From Planctomycetota bacterium (lineage in GTDB: Bacteria > Planctomycetota > PUPC01 > DSUN01), in NCBI GenBank assembly GCA_035527715.1, contig DATKZY010000144.1, positions 4,444-68,443 on the forward strand: a stretch of DNA of 64,000 bases, read 5' to 3'. Made by a program: the position numbers and the translations under genes. Positions 1 through 37,214 of this stretch are shown here, one piece after another; positions within the stretch are counted from its first letter, which is position 1, and the number at the start of each line of letters is the position of its first letter. The notes beneath the pieces are model-generated. The model saw only the letters and a list, made by a program, of their open reading frames with translations. It ran no database searches and was not told the origin of the DNA.

Positions 1-819
1 ACCATCGTCCTGGCCGTGGGGATGACCTACGTGCTGATCATCGCGGGGATTGACCTGTCGGTAGGCTCGGTGCTCGCCCTGAGCGTGGCCGTGATGGCCC
101 AGGTGCTCACGAGCGTGAAAGGGCCGCTCGCACTGCCGCTGGGCGTGGTGGCCTGCCTGGCCACGGGCCTCGTGTGCGGCGCGATCAACGGTGCGGTGAC
201 GGTCGCCTGGCGGCTCCCCGCGTTCATCGTCACCCTCGGCATGCTCGAGATGGCCCGCGGGGCCGCCTACTTTGCCACGGCCAAGCGCACGCTGTACTTC
301 GAGTCCAGGGTCTCGGCCCTCTCCGAGGTCTTCCTCGGCGGGCTGTCGCTCTCCTTCTATGTCGCGTTGGCCATTGTCGCCCTGGCGCAGTTCGTCCTCA
401 CCCGCAGCGTGCTCGGGCGTTACATGGTGGCCATCGGCACGAACGAGGAGGCGGTGCGGCTGTCGGGGATTCGCCCGCGCCCGGTCAAGTTCGCCGTCTT
501 CGCCCTGTGCGGGCTGCTCACCGGCCTGGCGGCGGTGATGCACGCCCTGAAATCGCCCTCGGCCAACCCGGGCATCGGCCAGGGCTACGAGCTGGACGCC
601 ATCGCCGCTGCGGTCATCGGCGGCACGAGCCTCATGGGCGGCAGGGGTTCCGTCGTCGGCTCGTTCTTCGGCGTCCTGATCATGGCCGTGCTCTGGTTTG
701 GCCTTGCCGGCCTGGGCGTGGCCGAGGAGTACAAGCGCTTCGTCACCGGCCTCGCCATCGTGGCGGCCGCCATCGCCGAATACTATCGCCGGCGCATGGC
801 CCGAGCCGAGAGAGCATAA
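1..819 (+). CDS. ABC transporter permease (sugar/ribose-type family), C-terminal portion; the 5' end lies outside the window
   Basis: Open frame from nt 1 to TAA at 817-819. Multi-pass hydrophobic protein with the typical permease segment ...AIGTNEEAVRLSGI... and ...GGTSLMGGRGSVVGSFFGVLIMAVL... Confidence 0.8.
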   Translation, partial: TIVLAVGMTYVLIIAGIDLSVGSVLALSVAVMAQVLTSVKGPLALPLGVVACLATGLVCGAINGAVTVAWRLPAFIVTLGMLEMARGAAYFATAKRTLYFESRVSALSEVFLGGLSLSFYVALAIVALAQFVLTRSVLGRYMVAIGTNEEAVRLSGIRPRPVKFAVFALCGLLTGLAAVMHALKSPSANPGIGQGYELDAIAAAVIGGTSLMGGRGSVVGSFFGVLIMAVLWFGLAGLGVAEEYKRFVTGLAIVAAAIAEYYRRRMARAERA

Positions 820-830
820 GGAGGCCCTCG

Positions 831-3800: not shown

Positions 3801-4241
3801 ATCATGCCTGGCGACTACACGTTCCGCGAGCACACGACCGGCGGGCCGCCGGATAAGCCATACGAGGAGTCCTGCTTCCTCGAACGCCTCCGCATGATGC
3901 TCGTGATGGAGGATGCCGGCCGCCTGTGGCTCGCGCGGGCCGTGCCACGGGCATGGCTCGAGCAGGGGAAGAGAATCGCGGTCAGGAACGCGCCGACCCA
4001 CTTCGGGCCGGTGGACTACGAGATCGTCTCGGACGCCGACCGGGGACGGATCGCGGCGACGGTGAGCCTGCCGGCGCGCCGTGCGCCCGAGGCCATCCTG
4101 CTGCGCCTGCGCCATCCCAAGGCTGCACCAATCCGCAGTGTCACCGTCAACGCACAACCGTGGACGGACTTCGACGCCACGCAGGAGACTGTCCGGCTGC
4201 ACGACGCAAGAGGAACGATAAGGGTGGAGGCGCGTTACTGA
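831..4241 (+). CDS. Large secreted hypothetical protein (~1136 aa), possibly a glycoside hydrolase-like (alpha/alpha)6-type enzyme; function not assignable from sequence alone
   Basis: ATG at 831 preceded by AAGGAGG at 818-824. N-terminal signal peptide MTTCLLAKALAAVAFVAVAAAAQQ. The track ORF 174..4241 is an over-extension that overlaps the upstream permease in another frame. Confidence 0.6.
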   Translation: MTTCLLAKALAAVAFVAVAAAAQQKTIEGLAGQAADVAPSAYLFRSDRQATENPPEAWLLLAQWAGLPFDKPIDPNAPRLKKALCGLLWEEVRPVRRVELSWPGDAANRPSPGDVTVAFFDATDATAHTWWNPRTVREAAKPEVSVDGLVYTYAIPVDTWGIVAAVRGEGDASACPVPAIRAFVADTWKKMEVELEWGFEDARSDLAYDGSLQPYDGILGEVRPLEGDSGTTPTGPQAWASAKKGDGRRGVRFSLLYIGSSRWRRTWPYHAQPDDVARTIVTAWTKSGSFSFLAADLERGPILAPEHGFFVRSVSREQAPAPAADAPKALPSGQALDTEMDSIPGIPLVRGWASNVIPWFGVNPTDKSATAGSLTIPARCAAMHPLPDRDVAVAWRSPIRGRVRLKGKVAAADARGGNGTEWALVHESKAGRVVLARGAITPGHSQCIPQEAADAKLADVAVEAGDALSLAVGAKGGNHMCDTTIVELVVTETGGEKRTWDLVKDVADSIHAGNPHADGFGSPGVWHFLSVEAQAGAGQASADAPPFDQASRAASARDFLKELAARGLSTIRQHVRKHPEQSWEGAVRALHGAGPLPPHPKPAFEPAMQLEVPCDRLAAQWKLGAWHILRHAVKDAKGAWRFNDFPFGILASETYMFLRALDLQGMHKEAADGLDQWLSLPMQPKASAGTHGNSKPDRPLGHFADGDGCLTHATGPDGAGGHMDAVHSMGPGAIAFALSEHFLLTGDTEWLKAHAPRMKANAEWILRQRRLLGRNVPGGDRLWGHGLQPAHVVTPDSHCMHMQFYESEAYYWLAVKRMAELLALLDPAEGAQMAAEAEAYRKSLLAAIDRSITLTPVVAVRDGTYRSFIPFSPYVRGFAAGAWGWRRCQGHVGAIYWDTVQSADPLISPSGLLAPSDPRVQGHLDVLEDRLLLENTKIRERRPAFDAEKDWFSHASWQYQCGLERHANIHIAADDPPNFLRSMLNQYAVDIMPGDYTFREHTTGGPPDKPYEESCFLERLRMMLVMEDAGRLWLARAVPRAWLEQGKRIAVRNAPTHFGPVDYEIVSDADRGRIAATVSLPARRAPEAILLRLRHPKAAPIRSVTVNAQPWTDFDATQETVRLHDARGTIRVEARY

Positions 4242-10017: not shown

Positions 10018-12573
10018 ATGCCGACGAAGACCAACCCGAGCTGGCCCGTCCTCAAGAGCTATGGCCAGGCGCACCTGGCGCGGATTGCCCTGCCCCTCGG
10101 CGGCATCGGGACGGGGACGGTTTCGCTCGGCGGGCGCGGCGACCTGCGCGACTGGGAGATCGTCAACCGTCCCGCCAAGGGCTTCTCCCCCCGCAACACC
10201 TTCTTCGCCCTCTGGACCCAACAAGCAGGAGAACCGCGCTCTTCCTCTTCTCCTGTCACGCGTCACGCGTCACGCGTCACGCGCTGTCTTGAGGGCATCC
10301 TCCCGCCCGAGACCTACGAGGGCGCGAGGGGCGCCACGGCCCCCAACCACGGCCTGCCCCGCTTCCGCCACTGCTCGTTCCACGCCGCCTATCCGTTCGG
10401 CCAGGTGCTGCTGGCCGACCCCGACGTGCCGCTCGACGTGCGTATCGAGGCCTTCAACCCCCTTATTCCAGGCGATGCCGACCGCAGCGGCCTGCCCGTG
10501 GCCATCCTGCGCTTCGTCCTCACCAACCGCACGAAGCGAGCTGTGGACGCCGCCGTGTGCGGCAGCCTCCAGAACTTCATCGGCTCCGACGGCTCCAGCG
10601 GCAAGCCCTCAAAGAACGTCAACGCCTTCCGCAAGGGGCCACGGCTCCAGGGCATCTTCATGAGTTCCGAGGGCGTGGACCCCGCCGCCGAGCAGTGGGG
10701 CACCATCGCCTTGGCCACCACAGCCAGGACCGGCGTCACGCGCCGCACCGCCTGGGCCAAGCGCAGCTGGGGCGACTCGCTGCTCGATTTCTGGGACGAC
10801 TTTTCCGCCGACGGCACGCTCGACGACCGCGACGCCGAGGGCGCCGACGGCCCGACCGCCTCGCTCGCTGTCCGACTCCGCGTCCCGGCCCGCGGCACGC
10901 GCGCCGTCAGCTTCCTCCTCGCCTGGCACTTCCCGAATCGCATGACCTGGACTCCTGCAGAGGATGCGTGTTGCGAGGCGAACCGCGTGAGCAACTACTA
11001 CGCGACGCAGTTCACGGACGCCTGGGCCGCCGCCTCCAGGGCCGCTGTCGCGCTCCCGCGCCTCGAGGCCGACACGCTCCACTTCGTCCGGGCCTTCTGC
11101 GACAGCGACCTGCCCCCCGCCGTCAAGGAGGCCGCGCTCTTCAACCTCTCGACCCTGCGCTCCCAGACCAGCTTCCGCACCGAGGACGGCCGCTTCTTCG
11201 GCTTCGAGGGCTGCCACGACAAGAGCGGCTGCTGCCACGGCTCGTGCACCCACGTGTGGAACTACGAGCACGCCACCGCCTTCCTCTTTGGCTCCCTCGC
11301 CCGCTCGATGCGCGCGACCGAGTTCCTCCTCGCCACCGACGACACGGGCCACATGGCCTTCCGCGTCAATCTGCCCCTCTCGCGCGCCCAGGAGTTCAAG
11401 CACGCCGCCGCCGACGGCCAACTCGGCTGCCTGATGAAGGCATTCCGCGACTGGCAGCTCAGCGGCGACGACGCCTGGCTCCGCCGCCTCTGGCCCAAGA
11501 TTCGCAAGGCCATGGAGTTCTGCTGGATTCCCGGCGGCTGGGACGCCGATCGCGACGGCGTGATGGAGGGCTGCCAGCACAACACGATGGACGTCGAGTA
11601 CTACGGCCCGAACCCGCAGATGGGCGCGTGGTATCTCGGCGCGTTGCGCGCCGTCGAGGAAATGGCCCGCCACCTGGGCGAGGATGAATTCGCGACGACC
11701 TGCCGCGACCTCTTCGAGCGCGGCCACCGCTGGATGGACGAGCACCTGTTCAACGGCGAATACTACGAGCACGAGATTCGCCCGCCGAGGTCCGCCAACG
11801 CCATTGCCCCCGGCCTGCGCCTGAGCATGGGCGCGAAGGACCTCTCCGAGCCCGACCTCCAGCTCGGCGCCGGCTGCCTCGTGGACCAGCTCGTCGGCCA
11901 ATACACCGCCCACGTCCTCGGCCTCGGCTACCTCCTCGACCCCAGGCACGTCAAGGCCACCCACCGCGCCATCATGAAGCACAACTTCAGGCGGGGCCTC
12001 TACGGCCACTTCAACCATCTTCGCACCTTCGCCCTCAACGACGAGTCGGCCTTGCTCATGGCCACCTATCCCCGGGGCCGCCGCCCGAAGCGGCCGTTCC
12101 CCTACTACAACGAGGTCATGACCGGCTTCGAGTATTGCGCCGCCGTCGGCATGCTCTACGAGGGCCAGACCGCTGCCGGCCTCAAATGCATCGAGGCCAT
12201 CCGCCGCCGCTACGACGGCCTGAGGCGCAACCCCTTCGATGAAGCCGAGTGCGGCCACCACTACGCCCGAGCCATGGCCAGTTGGTCGGCGGTCCTCGCC
12301 CTCACCGGCTTCCACTACTCCGCCGTCACGAGAACGATGACATTCGCCGCGGCCAGGAAGCCCACCACCTGGTTCTGGTCCACCGGCTCTGCCTGGGGCA
12401 CCGTCCGCCAGAGGCCGAGCCGGAGGGGCACCCACGTGGAAATCGCCGTGTTACACGGCAGATTGGAGCTCGGCAAGGTTCTGTTGGAGGGCCTCGGCTC
12501 CGTCGAGAGCGGCAAGTCAATCGCCATTGCGGCGGGAGAGACTGCCAGGTTCCTCGCGGGGCGTGACGCATGA
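10018..12573 (+). CDS. GH116-family glycoside hydrolase (GBA2-type beta-glucosidase/glucosylceramidase-like)
   Basis: N-terminal ARIALPLGGIGTGTVSLGGRGDLRDWEI matches the GH116 N-domain signature. 851 aa is the right size. GGAGG 6 nt upstream of ATG. Confidence 0.75.
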   Translation: MPTKTNPSWPVLKSYGQAHLARIALPLGGIGTGTVSLGGRGDLRDWEIVNRPAKGFSPRNTFFALWTQQAGEPRSSSSPVTRHASRVTRCLEGILPPETYEGARGATAPNHGLPRFRHCSFHAAYPFGQVLLADPDVPLDVRIEAFNPLIPGDADRSGLPVAILRFVLTNRTKRAVDAAVCGSLQNFIGSDGSSGKPSKNVNAFRKGPRLQGIFMSSEGVDPAAEQWGTIALATTARTGVTRRTAWAKRSWGDSLLDFWDDFSADGTLDDRDAEGADGPTASLAVRLRVPARGTRAVSFLLAWHFPNRMTWTPAEDACCEANRVSNYYATQFTDAWAAASRAAVALPRLEADTLHFVRAFCDSDLPPAVKEAALFNLSTLRSQTSFRTEDGRFFGFEGCHDKSGCCHGSCTHVWNYEHATAFLFGSLARSMRATEFLLATDDTGHMAFRVNLPLSRAQEFKHAAADGQLGCLMKAFRDWQLSGDDAWLRRLWPKIRKAMEFCWIPGGWDADRDGVMEGCQHNTMDVEYYGPNPQMGAWYLGALRAVEEMARHLGEDEFATTCRDLFERGHRWMDEHLFNGEYYEHEIRPPRSANAIAPGLRLSMGAKDLSEPDLQLGAGCLVDQLVGQYTAHVLGLGYLLDPRHVKATHRAIMKHNFRRGLYGHFNHLRTFALNDESALLMATYPRGRRPKRPFPYYNEVMTGFEYCAAVGMLYEGQTAAGLKCIEAIRRRYDGLRRNPFDEAECGHHYARAMASWSAVLALTGFHYSAVTRTMTFAAARKPTTWFWSTGSAWGTVRQRPSRRGTHVEIAVLHGRLELGKVLLEGLGSVESGKSIAIAAGETARFLAGRDA
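10255..10282 (+). repeat. Perfect 7-bp tandem repeat (GTCACGC)x4 inside the 5' coding region of the GH116 gene
   Basis: gtcacgcgtcacgcgtcacgcgtcacgc read directly. Encodes ...VTRHASRVTR... in a Ser-rich stretch. Confidence 0.7.
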
Positions 12574-12661
12574 AGGAGACTGCTCGTCCCGTGCAGCGTT
12601 CCCGCGTGCCACGGATCACGTGACACGCATCGAGGAGCATCGAAGTCAGGAGGAGACTCTG

Positions 12662-13804
12662 GTGACAGTCTTTGTCATGATCCCTTACAGGGACACGTTC
12701 AGGGAGACCTATCGCACTGCGATTGAGCCAGTGCTGAAGGCCAATGGCCTCGAACCAGTCGTCGGGGAGAATCATGTCACGCCGGGTCCTGTGGATGAGC
12801 AGATCGTCGCCTCCATACGAGACGCCAGGTTCTGCGTGGCGGACCTCACGGGTCCCAACCCGAACGTGGTCTACGAAGTCGCGCTGGCGCACTCATTGCG
12901 CAAGCCTGTGATTCTGCTGACCCGGGACGATCTGGGCGACATTCCATTCGACGTTCGCCACCACCGGGCTCTGAAGTATGCCCCGACGGCGGAGGGACAC
13001 GCGCGGTTGGCGCAGATGTTGCACGAAGCGGTCAAGGCGATCCTTGCCTCAGAGCAATCGGTAGTCCACCTCCTGAAGAGGATGCTGGCCCCTTCCAGCA
13101 TCGAGACAAGTAGAGGGGGGTTCGTGGTAGTGGCTAGTCCACTTTCGTATCGAGCCGCGTTCCGAAGAGGGGGCGGGTGGAGGAAGAGACCTCTCACAAC
13201 TTTCTCGGACAACGTGGGGATCCGCGGGCTGATGCAGTCATTCGGTCTGATATACGGCCTGGAAAGGCTTCCCGAACTCCTGAACCCGGACGACTTCGAC
13301 GACGAGGTGCTGGAGAAGCCGGAGAACCGGGTGAACATGTACGCGATAGGGAGTCCAAAGGCCAATCGGTGGACGGGGATTCTCATGGAGGGCTTCTTCG
13401 CGAACCGCAAGCCCAAGTGGGAGTTCAAGCCCGACCCGGAGAGCCGGGAGATAATGAACCCAAGAGTGATCGTGCGGCGCGACGGTCACGAGTTCAGACC
13501 CCACGTGATTGGGGATCCCCACATCCTGAAGTGGGATTTCGGCCTGGTGATCCGGGGGCCTCATCCCATGGATGCCAGCTTCATGTTCATGGTCCTTGCC
13601 GGCAGGAGCTCGCTCGGAACGGAAGCCGCATGCCTGGCCGTCACGGACCCCGTGTGTCTGAAGAAGCTCGACGAACGGCTGCGCTTCGAGGGCATCAACG
13701 CGGACGACCACAGGGAAGCGTTCTGCACCATCGTCAGCATCAAGGCCCCGGACATGAAGACCGACAAGGACGAATTCAGGGTATGCGATGTCATACGGTA
13801 CTGA
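12662..13804 (+). CDS. Two-domain protein in a lower-GC islet: N-terminal TIR-like/nucleoside-2-deoxyribosyltransferase-like flavodoxin-fold domain plus a C-terminal domain with a possible SLOG/LOG-like GxGTxE-type motif; candidate nucleotide-signalling or defence protein
   Basis: GTG start 12662 sits 7-8 nt after CAGGAGGAG (the ATG at 12677 is 23 nt away). N-domain: TVFVMIPYRD...ADLTGPNPNVVYEVALAHSLRKPVILLTRDDLGDIPFDVRHHRALKY, matching the TIR-like/NDT-like pattern NVxFELGxAxxxGKPVIxL...PSDL. C-domain: VVVASP...YAIGSPKAN...MFMVLAGRSSLGTEAA. GC visibly lower (~57-60%) than the flanks, with rare AGT/AGA/AGG codons. Confidence 0.6.
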   Translation: MTVFVMIPYRDTFRETYRTAIEPVLKANGLEPVVGENHVTPGPVDEQIVASIRDARFCVADLTGPNPNVVYEVALAHSLRKPVILLTRDDLGDIPFDVRHHRALKYAPTAEGHARLAQMLHEAVKAILASEQSVVHLLKRMLAPSSIETSRGGFVVVASPLSYRAAFRRGGGWRKRPLTTFSDNVGIRGLMQSFGLIYGLERLPELLNPDDFDDEVLEKPENRVNMYAIGSPKANRWTGILMEGFFANRKPKWEFKPDPESREIMNPRVIVRRDGHEFRPHVIGDPHILKWDFGLVIRGPHPMDASFMFMVLAGRSSLGTEAACLAVTDPVCLKKLDERLRFEGINADDHREAFCTIVSIKAPDMKTDKDEFRVCDVIRY

Positions 13805-14778: not shown

Positions 14779-16086
14779 ATGAGCAACAGAGGAATGGGCC
14801 TGCACGTCCTCGCGGGACTTGCGCTGTTCGCCGCGCCGGGGTGCATGATCTGGCTTCGCCCCGAGTGGGCGGAACTGAAGAAGTCCACGCAGCCGCCGAT
14901 CCTGCGGCTGGGAGAAATCAAAGAGACCTTCACGGGAACCTGGGTGGCCGGGGGCACGCAGACGAGCCTCAGGAACCACCTGCTGAGCGCCTTTGCGCGG
15001 CCCGAGGCCGCTGCCCTGTTCTCCGGCGACCCGGACAGCCTGACGCTGAACCTCGATATTGTCTCGGACCACGAGGACGATATGCCGCGCATGTTCGTTC
15101 TGGGCTGCCTCAGCATTGGCACCCTGGGCCTGCTCCCGCTCACCTACCATTCGGAATGGAACTTGCAGTGCAGCGTGACCGTCAAAGGCCCCGACGGCAC
15201 GGTCGTGGCGAAGTACCCGGTCCAGACGACGGGCAGCTACGACATCTGGGCGCTGCCGCCCACGATGTTCACCTTGTTTGCCGGATCGTTCCGGGCGCCG
15301 GGCGACGCCGGGCGCATCTTCCGCAGGATGGTCCATCGCGTCGTCGCCGACGTCAGTAAGGCGGTGGACACCGACTATCCGCGCCTGGCCAGGTGGAAGG
15401 AGGCGCGGGCACTCGTCGCGGCGCAAGCGCCGCTGAACGCGGCCATCGGCGACACAGCGTACTGGGTGGTCTACAACATCTCGACGCCTCAGCCCTCGGG
15501 CGCGGGAGCCGCGGCCTCGGCGCGCGAGTACGCCCTCGAGCTGCACCGCACCCGCCCGCAGCCGGGGGCGGCACCGCTCCGCCGCCTCGTCGTCGGCACG
15601 CGAAGCGGGGCAGTGAAGACCGCCTGGCAATGGCGCGACCCGAAGAGCGTGGTCTTCTTCGCCCACGGCCGCCTGTGGCACCCCGAGTGGAAGACGGGCC
15701 AGCCGGGGGACAAGCTGGTCGCCGTCGGGTTCCGCGAGCGCGCGGTCACCGCCAAGGACCTCTTCGCGCCCGACGGCCTGCCTGCCCTCGCGGCGACGGA
15801 GTGGAACGACCTCGTGGTGGCCTGGAAGAACCGCGACCTGGCCACCCTCCTGCGCGAGGGACGCACCGCCGACCTGGGCGAGCATGTGGCGCAGATCGAG
15901 CAGTTGGCCCTGCGAGCCAACGAGTCGGCGGACCGCGAGAACAACAAGGCGGAGGAACTGAAGGCGGCGGGCAAGCCGGGCAGCGAACTCCACCGCGAGG
16001 CGGCGCTGGCCTACCGCGCCCGCATCGAGGTCCTCAAGCCCATCCTCGCCGCCATCAAGGCCGAGGTGGCCAATCGCCAACGATGA
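14779..16086 (+). CDS. Lipoprotein, uncharacterized family; paralog 1 of a 4-gene tandem array
   Basis: AAGGAG 10 nt upstream of ATG. Lipobox FAAPGCM. 435 aa. Shares conserved blocks with the next three genes: PPILRLGEIKE, DIVSDHEDD, YDIWALPPTMFT, DYPRLA, YWVVYNI, EYALELHR.RP, WQWRDP, RLWHPEWK, and a helical C-terminus ...ILKPILAAIKAEVANRQR. Confidence 0.8.
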   Translation: MSNRGMGLHVLAGLALFAAPGCMIWLRPEWAELKKSTQPPILRLGEIKETFTGTWVAGGTQTSLRNHLLSAFARPEAAALFSGDPDSLTLNLDIVSDHEDDMPRMFVLGCLSIGTLGLLPLTYHSEWNLQCSVTVKGPDGTVVAKYPVQTTGSYDIWALPPTMFTLFAGSFRAPGDAGRIFRRMVHRVVADVSKAVDTDYPRLARWKEARALVAAQAPLNAAIGDTAYWVVYNISTPQPSGAGAAASAREYALELHRTRPQPGAAPLRRLVVGTRSGAVKTAWQWRDPKSVVFFAHGRLWHPEWKTGQPGDKLVAVGFRERAVTAKDLFAPDGLPALAATEWNDLVVAWKNRDLATLLREGRTADLGEHVAQIEQLALRANESADRENNKAEELKAAGKPGSELHREAALAYRARIEVLKPILAAIKAEVANRQR

Positions 16087-16160
16087 GGCAGACCCTGCCC
16101 GGGCAGGCGGCGCGCCGCGGGCCGAGACCAGGTAGCTGGGAGGGGACGGAGCCTACTGCG

Positions 16161-17462
16161 ATGCGCACGAACACAACGGTTTCTCACTTGGCCTGCCTCG
16201 TCCTGATGGCCGGGGGGGCGGGATGCATGGTCCGCCTCAGCCCGAGGCGCGTCGAGTTGAAGCGCTCGGCCCGGCCTCCCATCTACCGCCTGGGCAAGAT
16301 CACCGAAGACCTCACGGGCACCTGGGCCGCCGCCGCGAAGACCAACGACTGGGGGGGCAAGAACCCCGTGGCCGCCTTGCTCCGGCAGTCCGAAGCCGCC
16401 TCGCTGTTCAGCAGCGACCCCAACAACCTGACGATGGACATTCATCTTGTGTCGAGCCACGAGGACGACGCCCCGCGCCTGGCCTTCCTGGCGCTCATGA
16501 GCATCTGTACGCTGGGCATCATGCCCCTCCACTACCGCTCGGAATGGACCTCGGACGTGACGGTGACCATTCGGACGCCGGACGGGGCAACCGTGGACGA
16601 GCATGCGCTCCGGGCCAAGGGGGCCTACGACATCTGGGCGATGCCGCTCACCATGTTCACCCTGGGCACCGCGGCCCTGCGCGGGCCGCTGGACGGGCAG
16701 GAGGTGCGCAACCGCATGACGCGGAAGGCCGCGGCCGACCTGATGGAGGCGGCCGAGCGCGACTACGACCGCCTGGCGCGCTGGCGCCAGGCCTGGGCCG
16801 TCATCGCCGACCAGCAGCCGATCAGCGTGCAGGCCGGGGCCGCCACGTACTGGGCGACCTACAACATCGCCGCAGCCACGGAGGCGGCTGGCCGCCGACG
16901 CGAGTATGTGCTGGAGATTCACCAGAGCCGGCCGCGGCGGGGCGCGGCGCCCTGGCGCAGCGTGGTGCTGGGCGACGCGAGGCTGGCCCCCGACGCGCCC
17001 TGGCGATGGCGCGACCCGCGCGACGTGGTCCTCTACGCGGACCAACGCCTCTGGCACCCCGAGTGGAAGGTCGAGGGGCTGCAGGCCCAGCTCGCCGCCG
17101 TCCAGTTCAAGGAGCGGCCCGTCACGGCGAAGGAGCTGTTCGCGCCCGACGGCCTCAGCGACCTGTCGGCGACCGACTGGAACGACCTCCTGGTCGCCTG
17201 GAAGAACAGGGAACTCGTCGCCCTCCTCCGCGAGGCGTCCACGGCGGACCTCACGGGCCACGTCAGCCAGATCGAGCAGCTCGTGCTGCGAGCCAACGAG
17301 TCGGCCGAGCGCGAGAAGGACGAGGCGCAGAAGCTCATCGCGGCAGGCAAGCCGGGCGGCGAACTCCACGCCGAGGCCGCGCGGGCCTACGCCGCCCGCA
17401 TCGAGATACTCAAGCCCATCCTCGCCGCCATCAAGGCCGAGGTGGCCAATCGCCAGCGGTGA
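16161..17462 (+). CDS. Lipoprotein, uncharacterized family; paralog 2
   Basis: ATG 16161. Lipobox MAGGAGCM. Same conserved blocks. The track ORF 15393..17462 is N-over-extended across the intergenic region. Confidence 0.8.
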   Translation: MRTNTTVSHLACLVLMAGGAGCMVRLSPRRVELKRSARPPIYRLGKITEDLTGTWAAAAKTNDWGGKNPVAALLRQSEAASLFSSDPNNLTMDIHLVSSHEDDAPRLAFLALMSICTLGIMPLHYRSEWTSDVTVTIRTPDGATVDEHALRAKGAYDIWAMPLTMFTLGTAALRGPLDGQEVRNRMTRKAAADLMEAAERDYDRLARWRQAWAVIADQQPISVQAGAATYWATYNIAAATEAAGRRREYVLEIHQSRPRRGAAPWRSVVLGDARLAPDAPWRWRDPRDVVLYADQRLWHPEWKVEGLQAQLAAVQFKERPVTAKELFAPDGLSDLSATDWNDLLVAWKNRELVALLREASTADLTGHVSQIEQLVLRANESAEREKDEAQKLIAAGKPGGELHAEAARAYAARIEILKPILAAIKAEVANRQR

Positions 17463-17537
17463 GGGGGCCTATGGCCGGGCAGGCCCCGCCGCAGGCTAAG
17501 TGGAGGAGGCGAAATTGCTCAACTGAGGAGCACGCGC

Positions 17538-18836
17538 ATGAACACGATGAGGAGAGCCCGGCACGTTCTCTGCCTCGTCGCCCTGCTGGGGCCAACGGGC
17601 TGCATGATCACCCTCGGCCCGCGGAGGGCCGAGCTGGACAGGTCGCCCAACCCGCCCGTGCTCCGGCTCGGCGAGATCAAGGAGACCCTCACAGGATCGT
17701 GGGTGACGCAGGGGGGAGCCGGCTCCCCGGTCATCACGGGCAAGCTGGCGCGGCTGTTCTCTCAGTCCGGCGCGGCCTCGCTGTTCTCCTCGGAGCCAGG
17801 GAATCTGGCCCTCAACATCGAGATCGTGGTGGACCACGAGGCGGACGACCCGAAGCTGGTCAAGCTGGCGTTCGTGAGCATCGCCACGCTTGGGCTCGTC
17901 CCGCTCAACGGGAACGCGGAATGGCACGCGCGGTGCCAGGTGCAGGTGGCTGCCGAGGACGGGGTCGCGATCGCCAAGTACCCGATCCATGTGACTGGCT
18001 CCTACAGCATCTGGGCATTCCCTCCGACCATGATCGCGTTCATGGGCGCCGCTGGCCGGGCGTGGGCAGACGCGAGGGCGATCTTCGAGCGGATGGCCAA
18101 CAACGTGGCGGCCGAGATCATGAAGGCCGTGGCGGCCGACTACCCGCGTCTCGCCGAGGCCAAGCGGGCCCGCGCGGGAGTCGCCGAGCAGCAGCCACTG
18201 AGCATCCGGGCCGGCGGCACGACGCTCTGGGTCACCTACAGCGTCGCGCAGTCGGGCGCCGCGGGCCAGGAGTATGTGCTGGAGCTCCACCGGAGTCGGC
18301 CGCCCCGCGGTGCGGCGCCGCTGCGCAAGCTGGCCGTCGGGTCGCGGGCCGGGGTCGCCGGCCCCGAGACGCCCTGGCAATGGCGTGACCCGACGAGCGT
18401 TGTGTTCCAGGCCGAGGGGCGCCTGTGGCATCTCGAATGGAAGGTCGAGGGGCCACTGCACAAGCTGGCCGCCGTCGAGGCCCGCGAGCGCAAGCTCACC
18501 GCGCGCGAGCTTCTGCGCCACGACTCGTTCCCCGATCTGCCCCCGGGGGACCAGAATAGCCTGCTGCTGGCATGGAAGACCCGCGACTTGCTCACGCTCC
18601 TGCGCGAGGCCAGCACGTCGGACCTGGAGGACCACATCGTGGGGATCGAGGAGATGGTCCTGCGAGCCAACGAGATGGCCGAGCGCGAGAAGGACGAGGC
18701 GCAGAAGCTCATCGCTGCGGGCAAGCCGGGCAGCGAAATCCACGCCGAGGCCGCGCGAGCTTACCGCGCATGCATCGAGATCCTCAAGCCCATCCTCGCC
18801 GCCATCAAGGCCGAGGTGGCCAACCGCGCGAAGTAG
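17538..18836 (+). CDS. Lipoprotein, uncharacterized family; paralog 3
   Basis: GAGGAG 7 nt upstream of ATG 17538. Lipobox LLGPTGCM. Same conserved blocks. Confidence 0.8.
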   Translation: MNTMRRARHVLCLVALLGPTGCMITLGPRRAELDRSPNPPVLRLGEIKETLTGSWVTQGGAGSPVITGKLARLFSQSGAASLFSSEPGNLALNIEIVVDHEADDPKLVKLAFVSIATLGLVPLNGNAEWHARCQVQVAAEDGVAIAKYPIHVTGSYSIWAFPPTMIAFMGAAGRAWADARAIFERMANNVAAEIMKAVAADYPRLAEAKRARAGVAEQQPLSIRAGGTTLWVTYSVAQSGAAGQEYVLELHRSRPPRGAAPLRKLAVGSRAGVAGPETPWQWRDPTSVVFQAEGRLWHLEWKVEGPLHKLAAVEARERKLTARELLRHDSFPDLPPGDQNSLLLAWKTRDLLTLLREASTSDLEDHIVGIEEMVLRANEMAEREKDEAQKLIAAGKPGSEIHAEAARAYRACIEILKPILAAIKAEVANRAK

Positions 18837-18934
18837 TTTCTGCAGGGGAAGCCCGAATCGTGGCGACGAGCGGCGGCGCTTGTCGCTCGACCGCCACAAG
18901 CCAGCCGCTTGCGGCCACACAGGAGGGCGTGAAC

Positions 18935-20212
18935 ATGACAAGATCGGCGGGGTGGCCGTTGTGCATGGGGCTGATCCTCTCTGCGTCAGGGTGCGTGGCC
19001 ACGTTTCGCCCAAAGTGGGCGGAGCTGGAGAGGCCGACCCAGCCGCCCATCCTGCGACTCGGGGAGGTGAAGGAGTCCTTCACCGGAACCTGGGTGAGCG
19101 CCGGCAAACAGAGAAGCATCAGGAACGTGCTCTTGAGCGCGCTTGCGCAGCCCCAGGCCGCTGCCTTGTTCTCCGACGACCCGGGCAATCTGACCCTCAA
19201 CCTGGACATCGTGTTGGACGGCGAGGACGACGACCCCCAGTCGTTCGAGATCTGCGGCAAGTGCGTGCTCACGCTCGGGCTAATCCCCCTGACATGGCAC
19301 ACCGAGCACAACCTGCGGTGCGACGTCTCCATCAAGAGCCCCGACGACTTCGTGGTTGCGAAGTACCGAACCCATGTGACAGGCTCAAACGACGTCCTCT
19401 TCCTGCCTCCCACGATGGTCACGATGCTCGGGGGCCCGGTCGGGGGAAGGATTGCCATCGCGAGCATCTTCCGGAGGATGGCCCGCAGTGTCGTTGCCGA
19501 CATCATGAAGAGGGTGACGACCGACTATCCGCGGCTGGCCGAGGTGAAGCAGTCGAGAGCCGTGGCTGCGGGGCAGGCGCCGCTGAGCGTGGTGATTGGG
19601 GATACGCCGTACTGGGTGGTCTACAATATCTCGGCGGCGGGGCCGAAGTGGGAGTACGCCCTGGAGCTTCACCGCAGCCGTCCGCAACCGGGGACGGCGC
19701 CGCTGCGAAGTCTGCTCGTCGGCACGCGAAGCGGGGAAGCCGCCTCGGCCTGGCAGTGGCGCGAGCCGAAGAGCGTCATCGTGTTCGCTCAGGGGCGCCT
19801 GTGGTATCCCGCATGGCGGACCGAGGGGCCGGCCGAGAAGCTGGCCGCCGTCGAGTTCAAGGAGCGAGCTGTGCCCGCGAAGGAGCTCTTTCAGCCTGGC
19901 TCGCTGGGCGGCCTGTCGGCCAGCGAATGGAACGACCTCCTGGTCGCCTGGAAGAACAGGGAACTCGTCGCCCTCCTTCGCGAGGCGTCCACGGCGGACC
20001 TCACGGGCCACGTCAGCCAGATCGAGCAGCTCGTGCTGCGGGCCAACGAGATGGCCGAGCGGGAGAAGGACGAAGCGCAGAAGCTCATCGCGGCAGGCAA
20101 GCCGGGCAGCGAACTCCACGCCGAGGCCGCGCGGGCCTACGCCGCCCGCATCGAGATCCTCAAGCCCGTCCTCGCCGCGATCAAGGCCGAGGTGGCCAAC
20201 CGCCAGAAGTGA
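18935..20212 (+). CDS. Lipoprotein, uncharacterized family; paralog 4
   Basis: AGGAGGG 7 nt upstream of ATG 18935. Lipobox LSASGCV. Same conserved blocks. The track ORF 18572..20212 is over-extended. Confidence 0.8.
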   Translation: MTRSAGWPLCMGLILSASGCVATFRPKWAELERPTQPPILRLGEVKESFTGTWVSAGKQRSIRNVLLSALAQPQAAALFSDDPGNLTLNLDIVLDGEDDDPQSFEICGKCVLTLGLIPLTWHTEHNLRCDVSIKSPDDFVVAKYRTHVTGSNDVLFLPPTMVTMLGGPVGGRIAIASIFRRMARSVVADIMKRVTTDYPRLAEVKQSRAVAAGQAPLSVVIGDTPYWVVYNISAAGPKWEYALELHRSRPQPGTAPLRSLLVGTRSGEAASAWQWREPKSVIVFAQGRLWYPAWRTEGPAEKLAAVEFKERAVPAKELFQPGSLGGLSASEWNDLLVAWKNRELVALLREASTADLTGHVSQIEQLVLRANEMAEREKDEAQKLIAAGKPGSELHAEAARAYAARIEILKPVLAAIKAEVANRQK

Positions 20213-20230: not shown

Positions 20231-21280
20231 TCACTTGCCGAGAGGCGAGACCAGGAAGTACTTCCCGACCCCCGAGGTGTCGAAGAAATCGCCTGGGGTG
20301 ATGTCAATGGGGCCGAGCCTGTTCCCCTCCAGCTTCAACCCGGTGGCGGTAGCCACGGCGATCGCCGCCTTCTCGGAACAGACCGCTTTGTCGCCCAAGA
20401 GCCCGAAGCCGGGCTTCTTTTGCAGTGCGGCCTCCCTGGCGACGCCCCAGAGCTTCTTGCCGTCCACAGGGGCCTGCGGCCTGGCCACGTAGATCCCGCG
20501 GCCCTGGTACTGCTTCACGAGCTGCTTCTCGTCCAGGATGCGGCTGCCAACCTTGGGGGTGTGGTCCAGGAACAGGAGCCGGCCATTGGCCTCCTTCACG
20601 AACGTTAGCGCATGCGCCGCAGGCGATTTCTCCCTGGAGAGCGCCCGGAACACGTTACCCTTGCACAGATCGTCCAGGACCCGGTAGAAGCGGTCCGCTG
20701 CGGGGAGAGCCTTGCTTCCGGCACTGCTGGTGTCGGGCGTGAAGAGCAGAATGTCCCCCGGCAACAGGTCCTTCAGCTCCTTGGGGCGATGGGCTGGCGC
20801 CGGCTCCCGGCCCTCCTCGATGGCCGCAACGACCTCCTGGCGCCACTCCTTGTGCCGCCCCGCTGCCTCGCGCACTGCTGCCTCTTGCTTGCGCAGCCAC
20901 GGGCCAGCCGAGGTCGTCAACTCATGCTGCTCGCGCCACTTCGCCCCCTCACCCTCAACGTCCTGATTGAACTGGCGCGCCGCCTCGACATACTTAGTCT
21001 TGGCCGCCTCGAGCGCGGCCAGCTCGCGGCGCGCGGCCGCTTCCTCGGGGGAGCCTTCGACCACCCCGCCGCCGTACTTGGCGGCGAACGCCTTGTTCCT
21101 CTTGACCAGATCGCTGAGCTCCTGCCGCAGCTCCGCTTGACGCCGGGCCAGCGCGGCGCGCACCTCCTGGGGCAGCTCGTCCGGGATCGGCTCGAGCGCG
21201 GGCACCCCGGCATGCAGCCAGCCGGCAAGAGCGACGCCGAGCGCCAGGCATTGGAGCGACTTTCGTACTCTCAGGTTCAC
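20231..21280 (-). CDS. Secreted protein with an N-terminal coiled-coil region and a C-terminal domain that may be a permuted papain-like (NlpC/P60-type; His before Cys) hydrolase
   Basis: GTG start at 21278-21280 with AAGGAGG 6 nt upstream. Signal peptide NLRVRKSLQCLALGVALAGWLHAG. C-terminal GDILLF...AHALTF...GDKAVCSEKAAIAV suggests a His...Cys permuted arrangement. Domain call is low confidence. Confidence 0.55.
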   Translation of the reverse strand: MNLRVRKSLQCLALGVALAGWLHAGVPALEPIPDELPQEVRAALARRQAELRQELSDLVKRNKAFAAKYGGGVVEGSPEEAAARRELAALEAAKTKYVEAARQFNQDVEGEGAKWREQHELTTSAGPWLRKQEAAVREAAGRHKEWRQEVVAAIEEGREPAPAHRPKELKDLLPGDILLFTPDTSSAGSKALPAADRFYRVLDDLCKGNVFRALSREKSPAAHALTFVKEANGRLLFLDHTPKVGSRILDEKQLVKQYQGRGIYVARPQAPVDGKKLWGVAREAALQKKPGFGLLGDKAVCSEKAAIAVATATGLKLEGNRLGPIDITPGDFFDTSGVGKYFLVSPLGK

Positions 21281-21294
21281 GGCTGCCTCCTTTC

Positions 21295-22992
21295 TCACCG
21301 TGTAGAGTCGCGAGACCCCGGCGACGGCTTCGGCGAGGGCGGCGGAACGGGTTCCTTCTTGCTCTTCTCAGGCTCCTCGGTGAAATCCGGCGGGGTGAGC
21401 TTGATTAGGCGCTCCTTGATGTTGACCTTCGCCGTGTCGGCCTCCGACTTCGCGGCGTTCATCTGATTCATGACCTCCGCTCTCTCCACCTGAAGCTTGC
21501 CAACATTGCCTTCGTTGTTGGTGAGCTTCTCCTTGATGACCTCCAGTTTGCTCTCAAGCTTGCGGTATTTCTCCTCCGCGGCTTTCTTCTCCCCCGTGAG
21601 GCGCACGATCTCCGGATCCTCTCGGAAGCGTTTGGGCACCGAGACATCGCTGGACTCTATGGGATGCCCCGTCACGACCGGAACCGGGGCTGCCCCCTGC
21701 GATGTCCCGCGCTCGCCAGTCGAATCGAACCCGAGTTGCGCTCTGTCGCTGGCGCTTGCGCCCGAGGGGGCCAGCCAGCCCTGCTTGCTAGATCTCCTTA
21801 CGCCATCGAGCTGCTCACGAACGTTCCCATACTGGGGGGTGCCAGGACGGTCTGCCCGCGGGGCCGTCCCGGCTTCGCCGCGGCGCACGGAGCCCTTCCC
21901 AAACGGGGAAGTCGCTTCGCCGCTGCGCGTGTCGGCTGCCACCCCCCCCGACCGGCCGTCGGCTGGGGGCGTGCGGCGCCGCGGTTCGGGCAGTTCTGCG
22001 GCGGACGCCGTCGGAGTCGGAAGGCCGAACGGGAGCTTGGCGACGCCCTTCTCCAGGGCGGCCAGGCCCGATTCCGCCGCATCGCCCGCCTCGTCGAGGG
22101 CGCGCGAGCCGAGCGCCTTGAGCTTCGCTCCGAGGGCCTCGCTGTCCGTCGCCGTGAGCAGCTCGCGCACGATCTCGCCGCCAGGCCCGTCGCCCGCGCC
22201 TGCCTCGCCGAGGGCGGCCCGCGAGAAGCCGTAGTTCTCGGTGGCGAAGGCATCGGTCGCCGCGGCTCGTTGCTCCTGGGCCTCGAGGAAGGCCGGGTCC
22301 AGGCGCCCGGTCAGGATGCCAACCTCGATGGCGACTGCCGGCGGCAGGTCGTAGGCATAGCCGCCGAGGCGGAGCAGGGATTCGAGCCGCTGCTGGGGCG
22401 TGGGCTCGGGGCGGAGGTCTACCACCGAGCTGTCCACGAACGGCTCGGAGCCGCCGAGGCCGAAGAACGAGGTGCCTCCGGGCACAGGGTCGGGGCGGAG
22501 GTCTACCACCGAGCTGTCCACGAAGACGTCGAAGACCCCGGCGAGGCGCTGGCTGATCTCGGCGTCGCGGCGGTCCCAGTCCGCGCGGAGATGGGCGGCG
22601 AGGCGGATGCGCGCGCGGCGAAGCTGCTCCTGGCGCTGGCGCTCGCGCTCCCGTGCGAGGGCCTCCTGTCGGCGCCGCTCGGCAGCGAGGGCGGCCGCCC
22701 GCTGTTGCTGCTCCGCCATGCGCTGGAAGAACCCGTCGATCAGCCCGCTCACCGCGTTGCCGAGCGCCTCGCCGCCGCCGGAGCCTCCGGAGCTGCGGCG
22801 GCTGCCGCCGGAGGACCCCAGGCCCAGCCCGTAGTATCGGCACGACGAGTAGTGCCAAGGGTGATAGCTCGGGTGGCCGCAGATGCCGCACCCGTAGCTC
22901 GCGGCAGAGGCCGCCTCCGGCCATAGCATCGCGAGCACCGCCAACAGGGTGAGCGCAAGAACCGGGCAGCGGAAGAAGGGCAGTTTATTCAC
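21295..22992 (-). CDS. Secreted Cys-rich, Gly/Ser-rich and coiled-coil protein with an internal tandem repeat; hypothetical
   Basis: GTG start (track). Signal peptide. N-terminal SYGCGICGHPSYHPWHYSSCRYYG. Long Arg/Glu/Gln-rich helices. Stop lies 14 nt upstream of the next gene start. Confidence 0.6.
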   Translation of the reverse strand: MNKLPFFRCPVLALTLLAVLAMLWPEAASAASYGCGICGHPSYHPWHYSSCRYYGLGLGSSGGSRRSSGGSGGGEALGNAVSGLIDGFFQRMAEQQQRAAALAAERRRQEALARERERQRQEQLRRARIRLAAHLRADWDRRDAEISQRLAGVFDVFVDSSVVDLRPDPVPGGTSFFGLGGSEPFVDSSVVDLRPEPTPQQRLESLLRLGGYAYDLPPAVAIEVGILTGRLDPAFLEAQEQRAAATDAFATENYGFSRAALGEAGAGDGPGGEIVRELLTATDSEALGAKLKALGSRALDEAGDAAESGLAALEKGVAKLPFGLPTPTASAAELPEPRRRTPPADGRSGGVAADTRSGEATSPFGKGSVRRGEAGTAPRADRPGTPQYGNVREQLDGVRRSSKQGWLAPSGASASDRAQLGFDSTGERGTSQGAAPVPVVTGHPIESSDVSVPKRFREDPEIVRLTGEKKAAEEKYRKLESKLEVIKEKLTNNEGNVGKLQVERAEVMNQMNAAKSEADTAKVNIKERLIKLTPPDFTEEPEKSKKEPVPPPSPKPSPGSRDSTR

Positions 22993-24706
22993 GACGGTTC
23001 TTCACCTCCTCAAGCTCCTTGGCGAGCTCTTGTGCCATCTGGGGGTCGAGCTCGACGGCGCGGTCCAGGTGCTGCGCGGCCGACCTGTAGCGCCGGAGGG
23101 CGAGGAAGGCTCGGCCCAGGGTGGCGTGGGCCTCGGCGTCGTTGGGGGCCGTGGCCAGCGCGCGCGCGAGGGCCTGGATGGCCTCCTCGTGCCTGCCCGC
23201 GCGCTGGAGCACGTGGCCGAGGGTCGCGTGCGTCCACGCCCAGTCGGGGGCGGCCTTCGCTGCCTTGGCGCAGTCGGCGAGCGCCGCCGACTTGTTGCCC
23301 ATCTGCGCGTAGGCGCGGGCGCGCACGAGGAGCGCCATCGCGTCGTCGGCCTCGATCGCGAGCGCCCGGTCGCAATCGCGCACGGCCTCGGCCGACCGGT
23401 TCTGGCCGAGGAGCAGGCGGGCCCGCAGGGTGTAGACGAACGGCGTCTTGGGCGCGAGGGCGATGGCCTGGGTGACATCGGCCAGGGCGGCCTCAGGGTT
23501 CCGCTTCCGGTTGTGGAACGCGGCGCGCTCGGTGAACGAGCGCCAGTCCTTGGGGTCGGCCTCGACCGCCTTGTTCAGCGCCTCGAGGGCCTCGCGGTCC
23601 TGCCCGAGCGCCTGGTGTGCCCGGCTGAGGAGGCGGCATGCTTCCGCCTCCTTCGGGCTGGCGTCGAGCACGCGGCGCGCGTGCTCGAGCAGGGCGCTCC
23701 AGGCCCCCCGCGCCTCGTCCACCCGCGCGAGCACGAGGAAGACCTGAGGGTCCTTCGAGCCGAGGGAGAGCGCCACCTGGCCGTCCTCGGCGGCCAGGGC
23801 CACCTCGCCCAGCCGCTCGCGGGCCACGGCGCGAAGCACATATGCCTCAGCGAGTGTCGGCCGCAACTGGATGGCGCGCCCGAGGTCCTCGACGGCCCCG
23901 TGAAGCTCGCCCCGGTCCGTCCGCAGCCGCGCGCGGGCCAGATGGGCCTCCGCCAACTCCGGGTTGCGTTCGATGGCGAGGGTGAAGTCGCGAAGCGCTT
24001 CGGCGGCGGCCCCTTTGCGGGCGAGGGCCTGGCCGCGGTTGAGGAGGGCGAGGGCGCTCTTCGGCTCGGCCTTGAGCGCCTGGGTGAAGCGCTCGACCGC
24101 CTGGTCCCACTCCCCGCGCTCGCGGTGGGCGATGCCCTGGAGCAGGACGGCTTCGGCGAGCTCCGGGCGCTTCGCAGCAGCCGCGGCCGCATCCTTCCCC
24201 ACGGCCTCCCAGTCCCCGCGGAAGGCGTGGATCCACGCACGCTCCAACAGGGATTCGGGCGAGCCCTGACTCGCCTCGACCGCGCCGGTGGCATCGGCGA
24301 GCGCTGCGTCGGGGCGGCCGAGCAGCCGGTGCGCGCGCGCCCGCAGAAGCAACAGGTCGGCCCGCCGCGGCGCCGCGGCCACGCCATCCGTTGCGTCGGC
24401 CACCACCTCGGCCCAGCGGCCCTGGCCGGCCAGCAGTTCGGCCCTGGCGAGCCGATGGTCGGCGTTGAACGGCTCCAGGCGGACCGCCTCCGACGCGTCG
24501 GCGAGGGCGCCGACCGCATCGTGCATCTGCACCCGCAGCCTTGAGCGCGCGAGCCAGAGGTCGGCGCGTTTCGGATCCGCCTTGAGTTGCTGGGTCAGCT
24601 CGGCGAGCTTCTTCGAGCCGGCCTCGGGGCCGGCCGGCGTTTCGGCGGCACGCACGGCGCCTGCCGCGAGAAGGGCCAGGTACAGCGCGCCAGCGGCCAC
24701 GGGCAT
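22985..24706 (-). CDS. Secreted tetratricopeptide-repeat (TPR) protein
   Basis: Start at MPVAAGALYLALLAAGAVRAAE (signal peptide). Many Ala/Leu-rich 34-residue TPR-like units (AEA..LARA....G....A..D...A..L.P). Overlaps the downstream gene start by 8 nt. Confidence 0.7.
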   Translation of the reverse strand: MPVAAGALYLALLAAGAVRAAETPAGPEAGSKKLAELTQQLKADPKRADLWLARSRLRVQMHDAVGALADASEAVRLEPFNADHRLARAELLAGQGRWAEVVADATDGVAAAPRRADLLLLRARAHRLLGRPDAALADATGAVEASQGSPESLLERAWIHAFRGDWEAVGKDAAAAAAKRPELAEAVLLQGIAHRERGEWDQAVERFTQALKAEPKSALALLNRGQALARKGAAAEALRDFTLAIERNPELAEAHLARARLRTDRGELHGAVEDLGRAIQLRPTLAEAYVLRAVARERLGEVALAAEDGQVALSLGSKDPQVFLVLARVDEARGAWSALLEHARRVLDASPKEAEACRLLSRAHQALGQDREALEALNKAVEADPKDWRSFTERAAFHNRKRNPEAALADVTQAIALAPKTPFVYTLRARLLLGQNRSAEAVRDCDRALAIEADDAMALLVRARAYAQMGNKSAALADCAKAAKAAPDWAWTHATLGHVLQRAGRHEEAIQALARALATAPNDAEAHATLGRAFLALRRYRSAAQHLDRAVELDPQMAQELAKELEEVKNRRE

Positions 24707-24926
24707 CCCTCGCAATTCACGTCCAGGTTGCAGCATGCCGGTTTGTGCCTCCAAAGACTCCCTGGCGGGGCCCGATGCGGCCTCCCCAATGGGTAGTATA
24801 GCGCACCAAGCAGGGATTGCAAGACAATAGCAGCGGCAGGTCGCACGCGAGCCCCCACTTGCCGTTGCCGCCGCCGGCGGCTATCATTGGGATGGCAGGC
24901 GGAGCCGTGTGCGGAAGGAGCACAGG

Positions 24927-35154: not shown

Positions 35155-35255
35155 CTCATTCCTCCAAGGCTTCCTGAATGCGGCCCGGGGCCGGACACAC
35201 GCTAGAGTCGTATTGTATATGCGAACTGCCGGGCTGTCAAAAAAGACTCGCGAGT

Positions 35256-36689: not shown

Positions 36690-36736
36690 GCACTACCTCC
36701 TGCGGACGGGTCGGCCCGCAGGAGGCAGTGTAGTGC
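36690..36736 (-). promoter_or_regulatory. SD-sequestering 5'-UTR hairpin directly upstream of the FAD-oxidoreductase start codon; copy 1 of a repeated motif
   Basis: On the mRNA: GCACUAC-ACUGC-CUCCUGCGG / loop / CCGCAGGAG-GUAGUGC then AUG. The anti-SD CCUCCU pairs with the SD AGGAGG. Confidence 0.5.
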
Positions 36737-37214
36737 ACAGGGCGTTCAAAGGCAAGAGCGGCTACGGGACCAGGCCATACCTGTGCCTGTCACAGACGGC
36801 TTGTGTGTTCGCCTCCGGCCCACGCCTGGGCGACCCAGGACGGGTGCGATGACATGTCGAGCCATAATCTATGCCACCGTAGTGACTTGCATGTCAGCGG
36901 TGTGACAGGCACCGTGCCCCGACAGGCCCCGTGCCCCGCCGTGCCCCGTGCCGAGGAGGCCAAGAAGCGGTTTGAGAGGCTGAAGAAGCGCTTCGACGAG
37001 GCCGGCAAGCCTCCCGCCGCCCCCTGATGCCGCAAGGACGCCCGGTTCGTCGGTTCGGCGGCTCGGTGCCTCACACCCATGAGTTGGTTGTGGGCTCCGC
37101 AGGAGGCGCGGAGCCGCGTGGGGCGGGCTTGGCCATGTTGGCCCCAGCGCGAGCCGTACGGCAGTCTTGCAGCGGCTCCGTGGTTCCCTGCGGACACAGG
37201 CCGCGTCTCTCCGC

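Follow-up and report, generated by a model that had tools for sequence, protein, structure and literature searches.

On a 64,000-nucleotide stretch of a Planctomycetota contig (GenBank DATKZY010000144.1), hereafter the window, to which our positions refer, four tandem genes (14779-20212, plus strand) encode proteins of an unannotated and rare family of probable lipoproteins. We found that genes of this family, together with one gene for an exported tetratricopeptide repeat (TPR) protein and one for a cysteine-rich coiled-coil protein (CC), form a recurrent and so far unnamed cluster in several bacterial phyla, and that the C-terminal three-helix tail of the four proteins is the most widely shared module of the family, placed strictly at the C-terminus behind unrelated heads. 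Sequence comparison further indicates that the array consists of old, differentiated, and non-redundant paralogs, and that concerted evolution by gene conversion has been confined to their tails while the heads diverged. In our preferred explanation, to which we give a probability of about one half, the four genes encode differentiated lipoprotein subunits of a conserved envelope module, with the tail docking onto the TPR and CC partners. Envelope biogenesis is poorly known in Planctomycetota, Verrucomicrobiota, and syntrophic deltaproteobacteria, where most exported proteins are unannotated, and the present analysis defines a recurrent three-gene cluster, a new C-terminal module found in more than 100 protein clusters, and a beta domain without a structural neighbour, besides a clear case of concerted evolution limited to one domain of tandem paralogs.

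The tandem array and its family

The four same-strand open reading frames (ORFs), namely copy A (14779-16086, 435 aa), copy B (16161-17462, 433 aa), copy C (17538-18836, 432 aa), and copy D (18935-20212, 425 aa), are all intact and can be aligned end to end, in agreement with an earlier, sequence-only reading of this DNA that had described four tandem paralogs of about 430 aa. At the protein level, identity to copy A is 52% for copy B, 54% for C, and 63% for D, the four-copy alignment has a mean column identity of 71% with 127 invariant columns, and, since the mutual E-values run from 1e-135 to 1e-165, the paralogy of the four copies is not due to chance. The sequence blocks that the same reading had taken as fixed are indeed shared, but with small variations between copies, such as PPIYRLGKITE in B, or DIVLDGEDD and RLWYPAWR in D. 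Each gene has its own ribosome-binding motif, as previously noted, in the form of GGAG or AGGAGG about 8-14 nt upstream of the ATG. The head-to-tail period is regular (about 1376 nt), with spacers A-B, B-C, and C-D of 74, 75, and 98 nt, and the terminator-like sites of the array region show no excess over expectation, so that a single transcript is plausible. The spacers fold no better than shuffled sequences, with the exception of the C-D spacer (18834-18934, plus strand), where a long hairpin of -47.4 kcal/mol (z -2.6) was equaled in 3 of 200 shuffles. The G+C content of the window is about 68%, and its proteins are identical to entries of a Planctomycetota metagenome-assembled genome (MAG) with locus tags VNE39_15370 to VNE39_15385.

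The leaders of the copies are composed of a basic n-region and a hydrophobic h-region followed by a Gly-Cys pair, which is invariant in 14 of 14 close homologs, and the lipobox strings given before (FAAPGC, MAGGAGC, LLGPTGC, and LSASGC) are correct. A PROSITE PS51257-like lipobox rule fits B and D only, and the strict rule fits 77 of the 141 family members starting with Met. Copies A and C, which have Pro at position -2 or -3, miss this rule, so that the invariant Gly-Cys makes the four products probable lipoproteins and no more than that.

The description of the family as unrecognised also held. Pfam searches (E <= 0.1) returned no family for copies A, B, and D, and one sub-threshold and unrelated match for copy C; NCBIfam, PADLOC, and PHROGs gave no significant match for the four proteins; the Syntrophaceae homologs likewise had no match in the sequence family libraries; and the PDB sequences, searched with a profile of 14 homologs, yielded nothing even at E 10. 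A word-indexed search of 5.8 billion clusters retrieved 14 proteins, four of them from the window itself and all of them labeled "hypothetical", and an exhaustive hidden Markov model (HMM) search of 1.84 billion representatives gave 231 matches at E <= 1e-3, about six of which are full-length. All family members found here come from uncultured genomes, and neither the family nor the cluster turned up in full-text searching of the literature.

Modules of the lipoproteins

The leader of copy A ends at Cys22, and an AlphaFold2 model of this copy, with a predicted local distance difference test score (pLDDT) of 82.3 and a predicted template modeling score (pTM) of 0.55, contains an N-domain (residues 23-215, nt 14845-15423), a middle beta domain (residues 216-322, nt 15424-15744), and a C-terminal three-helix tail ending in NRx[R/K] (residues 323-435, nt 15745-16083), all encoded on the plus strand. 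The relative placement of these domains is uncertain because of the pTM of 0.55. The best structural matches of the N-domain are LptE, the PqiC-like 2iqi, PelC, CsgG, and TraT (Foldseek against LptE, E 2.5e-4), and the modeled N-domain has the LptE fold and resembles the LptE/PqiC/PelC/HpaA group, which puts the family among the LptE/PqiC/PelC-like lipoproteins. The structures 5TSE, 2R76, 2IQI, and 5T0Z belong to one structural class of ring-prone outer-membrane lipoproteins, whose members form 8- to 12-mer rings and function with a partner conduit (PMC10897342). The other two domains are without a known counterpart: the middle beta domain has no structural neighbour in the PDB, and the tail, modeled as three helices (residues 339-434) with pLDDT >90, matches generic three-helix bundles only.

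In order to survey the modules, sub-profiles were scored on 162 proteins comprising the close homologs and the 150 best representatives; 97 of these proteins carry the tail only, 29 the N-domain only, 18 all three modules, and nine the middle domain plus tail. The tail lies within 3 residues of the protein C-terminus in 131 of 133 cases, and its final five residues are typically ANRx[R/K]. Of these 131 tails, 78 close with Arg and 45 with Lys (123 together); among the array copies, the terminal residue is Arg for A and B and Lys for C and D. Among the heads that precede the tail are PDZ domains, TPR domains, and a large number of lipoprotein domains without annotation, and ankyrin repeats are present in two family members. 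The N-domain, in turn, is alternatively joined to a caspase-like domain that replaces both the middle domain and the tail. This fusion of an LptE-like N-domain to a caspase-like Peptidase_C14 was seen in 13 representative clusters (for example P0022, P0023, P0031, P0035, and P0037; compare loci L007-L010), and these proteins are therefore predicted to be membrane-anchored periplasmic caspase-like proteases.

Old heads and converted tails

Neighbour-joining trees were made separately for the heads (N-domain plus middle domain) and for the tails. In the head tree, copy B groups with L005_1 and P0008 inside a clade of single-copy loci (L004, L005, and L006), and it is the "core" type, an ortholog of the genes that other Planctomycetota loci have in single copy, whereas A, C, and D share a second clade with P0002 and P0003, which come from other samples, and the second gene of locus L001 falls in a third clade with P0013. 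Copy A groups with P0002, its closest relative outside the window (72% identity); for both A and B, nearer relatives are found in other genomes than among the neighbouring copies. Since the head types have orthologs in other genomes, the duplications predate the divergence of these organisms, and for this reason a recent dosage amplification is ruled out and non-redundant subunits are indicated.

Unlike in the head tree, in the tail tree the paralogs of the same genome cluster together (window copy B with window copy D, and L001_1 with L001_2). A tract attributable to gene conversion covers the 3' part of the tail coding region at 17178-17462 in copy B and at 19928-20212 in copy D (plus strand), where 285 nt contain 13 mismatches (95% identity), only one of them in the first 113 nt, compared with 55% identity between the heads of the same two copies. 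In a sliding window, the B/D identity is much lower immediately 5' of the tract and is at chance level directly past the stop codons; copy D, which has the most divergent head of the four, had its tail recently converted from or to copy B. Synonymous sites between paralogs are saturated outside the converted tract. Tails more alike than heads were found in four independent arrays (the window, L001, L014, and L012), with paralog DNA identities of 72-93% in the tails and 49-69% in the heads, the head values of the window paralogs being 55-69%.

Conserved partner genes

Convergent with the array, there is a minus-strand operon (20231-24754) of three genes with overlaps of 8 and 4 nt and three signal-peptide-like leaders, which the sequence-only reading had noted as an operon of secreted proteins; the hint of that reading that this operon matters was borne out by two of the three genes, TPR and CC, which are conserved partners of the lipoprotein genes elsewhere. 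The exported TPR protein (22985-24754, minus strand) is encoded by a 589-aa ORF with a signal-peptide-like leader starting from an internal Met, MPVAAGALYLALLAAGAVRA, and without a lipobox. It matches Pfam TPR_2 at 3e-41 and other TPR families too, is 55% identical to its L001 neighbour counterpart, and is made of TPR throughout, with no barrel domain; its repeats are of the canonical 34-residue type, like those of Hop, PEX5, and TOM70, with sequence similarity to generic TPRs only. TPR orthologs adjoin lipoprotein genes in 18 fetched loci.

The second conserved partner, the Cys-rich CC protein (21295-22992, minus strand, 565 aa), is secreted and contains the motif SYGCxxCGHPSxxPWHYSSC, an Arg/Glu-rich coiled coil, and the motifs DWDRRDAE..RL.GVFD and VDSSVVDLRP. 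Its N-terminal half is 46% identical to the L001 neighbour, and matches to its HMM lie beside the TPR gene across loci. This protein is also rare (16 clusters in 5.8 billion), and several of its clusters come from contigs of 3735, 3980, 5545, and 18767 nt, sizes that are shared with the contigs of lipoprotein homologs, which suggests that both kinds of homolog lie on the same contigs. Right after the signal peptide, residues 31-53 of CC hold the pattern SYGCxxCGHP..PWHYSxC, with three Cys and two His. This pattern is invariant in the Planctomycetota versions but was not found in the L014 protein, the single homolog inspected from deltaproteobacteria; it is distinct from the haem motif CxxCH and may represent a metal site or a disulfide knot.

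Wherever the flanks of a Planctomycetota relative are long enough (L001, L004, L005, L006, L011, L031, and L033), one or two lipoprotein copies are followed by convergent CC and TPR genes, and the lipoprotein genes of L002 and L003 are likewise convergent with CC and TPR. In deltaproteobacterial MAGs (Syntrophaceae and relatives; L014, L016, and L018-L021), the genes lie on one strand as two to four lipoprotein copies, then TPR, and then CC, with L014 having four tandem copies as in the window, and at L013 the order is TPR, CC, and two lipoprotein genes. The same three families are present at L015 and L023, loci cut by contig ends, and the Opitutales contig L012, truncated on its upstream side, has at least four tandem tail-bearing genes, one of them with a PDZ insert. 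The four window copies share the features that define this cluster, that is, an NRx[R/K]-ending tail together with adjacent TPR and CC orthologs. Given that they recur across loci, the tandem organization and the partnership with TPR and CC belong to the system as such and are not peculiar to this genome. An all-against-all ORF comparison of 21 loci found no conserved neighbour besides the trio, except for one FAD (flavin adenine dinucleotide) oxidoreductase ORF, which is confined to a few related deltaproteobacterial loci and which we discarded as a system part, judging it to be lineage synteny. The wider neighbours in the window are glycoside hydrolases, HisF, and a Ser/Thr kinase.

Two further loci carry CC-like or more distant coiled-coil genes. 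In a low-G+C uncultured bacterium, a four-gene operon (L010, 6034-10648) encodes a CC-like protein whose DTSTVDL motif is similar to VDSSVVDLRP, another coiled-coil protein, a helical-repeat protein of 572 aa, and a 226-aa N-domain-only lipoprotein, and it gives the impression of a version of the system without the tail. At L032 (8186-18021), a 671-aa protein distantly related to the coiled-coil family (profile E 2e-16, a match that may be compositional) has small TPR genes on one side and a 2019-aa Rhs/DUF6531 protein on the other.

Other genes of the window

The last gene of the TPR operon (20231-21298, minus strand), which overlaps the CC gene by 4 nt, encodes an exported protein of 355 aa, whose N-terminal part is a coiled coil and which has no Pfam or PDB sequence match. 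Its C-terminal domain holds His223, Asp239, and Cys301-Ser302, which are invariant in the family, with the His before the Cys, an order that would fit the earlier idea of a papain-like enzyme in permuted form. Its 47 homologs or clusters belong to Nitrospirae, Syntrophus, Alphaproteobacteria, and other groups, and a few of them are fusions with TPR domains. At the five loci inspected (L026-L030, with two distinct arrangements), the gene directly follows a TPR gene of another kind, and tail-bearing genes are absent. The protein has no similarity to the L001 neighbours and is missing from all other trio loci scanned. We therefore rejected it as a conserved component of the system, since it is missing at the other trio loci and travels, at the five outside loci, with other TPR genes. 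Among the TPR, coiled-coil, and papain-like genes that had been pointed out as possible constant neighbours of such arrays, the TPR and CC genes are in fact conserved, but the papain-like gene is specific to this locus.

Farther from the array, the ORF just upstream of the DUF1080 gene (12527-13804, plus strand) has an N-terminal match to a PADLOC TIR effector (E 2e-8), a weak Pfam match to nucleoside 2-deoxyribosyltransferase (E 0.04), and an unannotated C-terminal part of about 250 aa; the 2 kb around it have the second-lowest G+C of the window (0.627), and it may be a defence-type gene. In a 1915-aa protein (30991-36738, minus strand), a hydrazine-synthase alpha middle domain (E 1e-29) is joined to an FGE-sulfatase domain at the C-terminus (E 1e-44), and a 1355-aa ORF (174-4241, plus strand) has a coding-like codon bias (G+C at third codon positions, 0.82) and no Pfam match at E <= 1e-5.

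Proposed mechanism and alternative explanations

In our preferred explanation, the lipidated Cys would anchor each protein to a membrane, most likely to the inner face of the outer membrane by analogy with other members of the fold class, and the common tail would work as a docking domain through which different heads engage a single partner, be it the TPR superhelix or the coiled-coil protein. Such docking would yield a hetero-oligomeric envelope complex on that face of the outer membrane, and having one partner in common would explain why the tails of one genome stay alike. In this organism, the TPR operon would additionally recruit the exported Cys/His hydrolase-like protein. The TPR proteins Hop, PEX5, and TOM70 bind C-terminal segments. 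Alternatively, the lipoproteins may be clients handled by a shared TPR/coiled-coil machinery, with the tail serving as a sorting tag. The candidate cellular roles would be envelope organization, scaffolding of periplasmic enzymes, or sorting.

A more general proposal can be made, although only tentatively, because we consider it possible but clearly less probable than the former: the tail might be a new C-terminal docking or sorting domain read by a dedicated exported TPR plus coiled-coil protein, which at the outer membrane would assemble or position interchangeable lipoprotein heads (LptE-like, PDZ, TPR, ankyrin, and others), while gene conversion would keep the tails of a genome compatible with one machinery. 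If true, this would be a previously undescribed envelope assembly system across several phyla.

Several points weigh against our preferred explanation. Gene adjacency alone links the tail to the TPR and CC proteins, and the conservation of the tail could be explained by an intrinsic function, such as self-association, plus recombination, with no need of a common partner. For some arrays of tail-bearing genes, the available sequence shows no TPR/CC gene, namely L025, which is the second array of a genome whose TPR/CC genes sit at L016, and the truncated L012. Moreover, N-domain-only relatives also occur in operons with coiled-coil and helical-repeat proteins (L010), and for this reason the N-domain, and not the tail, could be the system-specific contact. 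The arrangement of the domains in the full-length model is uncertain, as its pTM indicates, and lipidation is predicted from sequences in which A and C have Pro at position -2 or -3 of the lipobox.

We have weighed these docking proposals against four other explanations. The strongest of them, which we still find unlikely, is that the proteins are accessories of an outer-membrane conduit, with the N-domain forming a homo- or hetero-oligomeric ring that plugs or collars a channel for lipopolysaccharide, lipid, or polysaccharide, and with the TPR protein in the role of the TPR domain of PelB. The best fold matches of the N-domain (LptE, 2iqi, PelC, CsgG, and TraT), the ring-forming habit of this fold class with its partner conduit (PMC10897342), and the always adjoining TPR protein speak for it. 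However, the neighbourhood in the window contains no beta-barrel, MCE, glycosyltransferase, or pel/lpt/pqi gene, and none of these is conserved near the trio in the 21 loci; the TPR protein, being all TPR, lacks a barrel domain; the array proteins have no sequence-level match to the LptE, PelC, or DUF330 families, whose members are less than half as large; and it is the tail, not the N-domain, that is most widely shared. An immunity or decoy array, in which diversified periplasmic lipoproteins would neutralize toxins or block phage receptors, takes up the immunity idea of the sequence-only reading and is, in our view, improbable. Such an array would agree with a copy number of one to four among related genomes, with heads that diverge much faster than tails, with the exported Cys/His hydrolase-like gene next door in the window, and with the distant coiled-coil relative beside an Rhs gene at L032. 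Nevertheless, the conserved neighbours are TPR and coiled-coil genes and not toxins, the hydrolase-like gene is missing from all other loci, and the orthologs of the head types are 51-72% identical in other genomes and thus not hypervariable; in addition, PADLOC gave no match, and three domains in about 430 aa are atypical of immunity proteins. The related suggestion of a diversifying or binding-protein array fared better in part, as the heads do diverge while the tail is kept uniform, and relatives carry PDZ or TPR binding modules ahead of this tail.

Two remaining explanations are less probable still. The helical and strictly C-terminal tail with its basic end (Arg or Lys last in 123 of 131) recalls Braun's lipoprotein, which has a C-terminal Lys, and the proteins could accordingly be imagined as Lpp-like tethers, lipid-anchored in the outer membrane, with a helical C-terminal domain whose basic last residue binds, or is cross-linked to, peptidoglycan. 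We regard this as very improbable, given that Arg, which cannot form the Lpp-type amide link, exceeds Lys as the last residue (78 vs. 45) and ends copies A and B, that the tail is modeled as a compact three-helix bundle instead of a long trimeric coiled coil, and that no L,D-transpeptidase gene is linked to the genes in the window neighbourhood or in the 21 loci. Finally, the recent tandem amplification of one lipoprotein for a higher dosage, also suggested in the sequence-only reading, is hinted at by the four head-to-tail copies and their regular period of about 1376 nt, but the copies differ far too much for it (52-63% protein identity to copy A and 55-69% identity in head DNA), and A and B are nearer to genes of other genomes; this idea can be dropped as refuted, unless the head tree is an artefact of recombination.

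Comparison with known systems

The LptE/PqiC/PelC class is the nearest relative of the array proteins by the predicted fold of the N-domain, but the array proteins are more than twice as long, have two extra domains, and occur in one to four differentiated copies, with no LptD, PqiAB, or pel genes near the array loci. LptE itself (PF04390) has no sequence-profile match in the array proteins in spite of the shared fold, and it is a single small lipoprotein (about 170-200 aa) that works with LptD, whereas the array has four proteins of about 430 aa with two further domains and no LptD-like gene among the window neighbours scanned. In the same way, the array proteins lack the profile match and the linkage to MCE (PqiB-like) genes of PqiC/DUF330, as well as the linkage to a pel operon and PelB that accompanies PelC. 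HpaA, of the Helicobacter neuraminyllactose-binding hemagglutinin family, has no sequence similarity to the array proteins, is without the beta domain and the tail, and lies outside any TPR/coiled-coil cluster. Polymorphic-toxin immunity arrays have an adjacent toxin and hypervariable small immunity genes, whereas the array has TPR and coiled-coil genes as its conserved neighbours and head types that are kept across genomes, and it has no PADLOC match.

A likeness of logic, which we take to be an analogy and nothing closer, exists with NlpI (with MepS/Prc) and LbcA (with CtpA), periplasmic TPR scaffolds for lipoproteins and hydrolases, where an exported TPR protein is likewise encoded with envelope lipoproteins. 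The array locus also has an exported Cys/His hydrolase-like protein, and relatives carry PDZ or caspase-like protease domains. The TPR protein described here differs from them in having no lipobox and no linked C-terminal processing protease. With respect to C-terminal sorting domains, no secretion or sortase-like enzyme is linked to the tail genes, and the tail is predicted to be a three-helix bundle, in contrast to the beta sandwich or transmembrane helix seen elsewhere, including the C-terminal domain (CTD) of type IX secretion. It is, however, with this CTD that the tail shares its general plan, that is, a conserved domain at the extreme C-terminus behind unrelated heads with dedicated partner genes near. 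The analysis as a whole gives, in place of a set of "hypothetical proteins", a testable hypothesis, in which the tail would dock on its TPR and coiled-coil partners.

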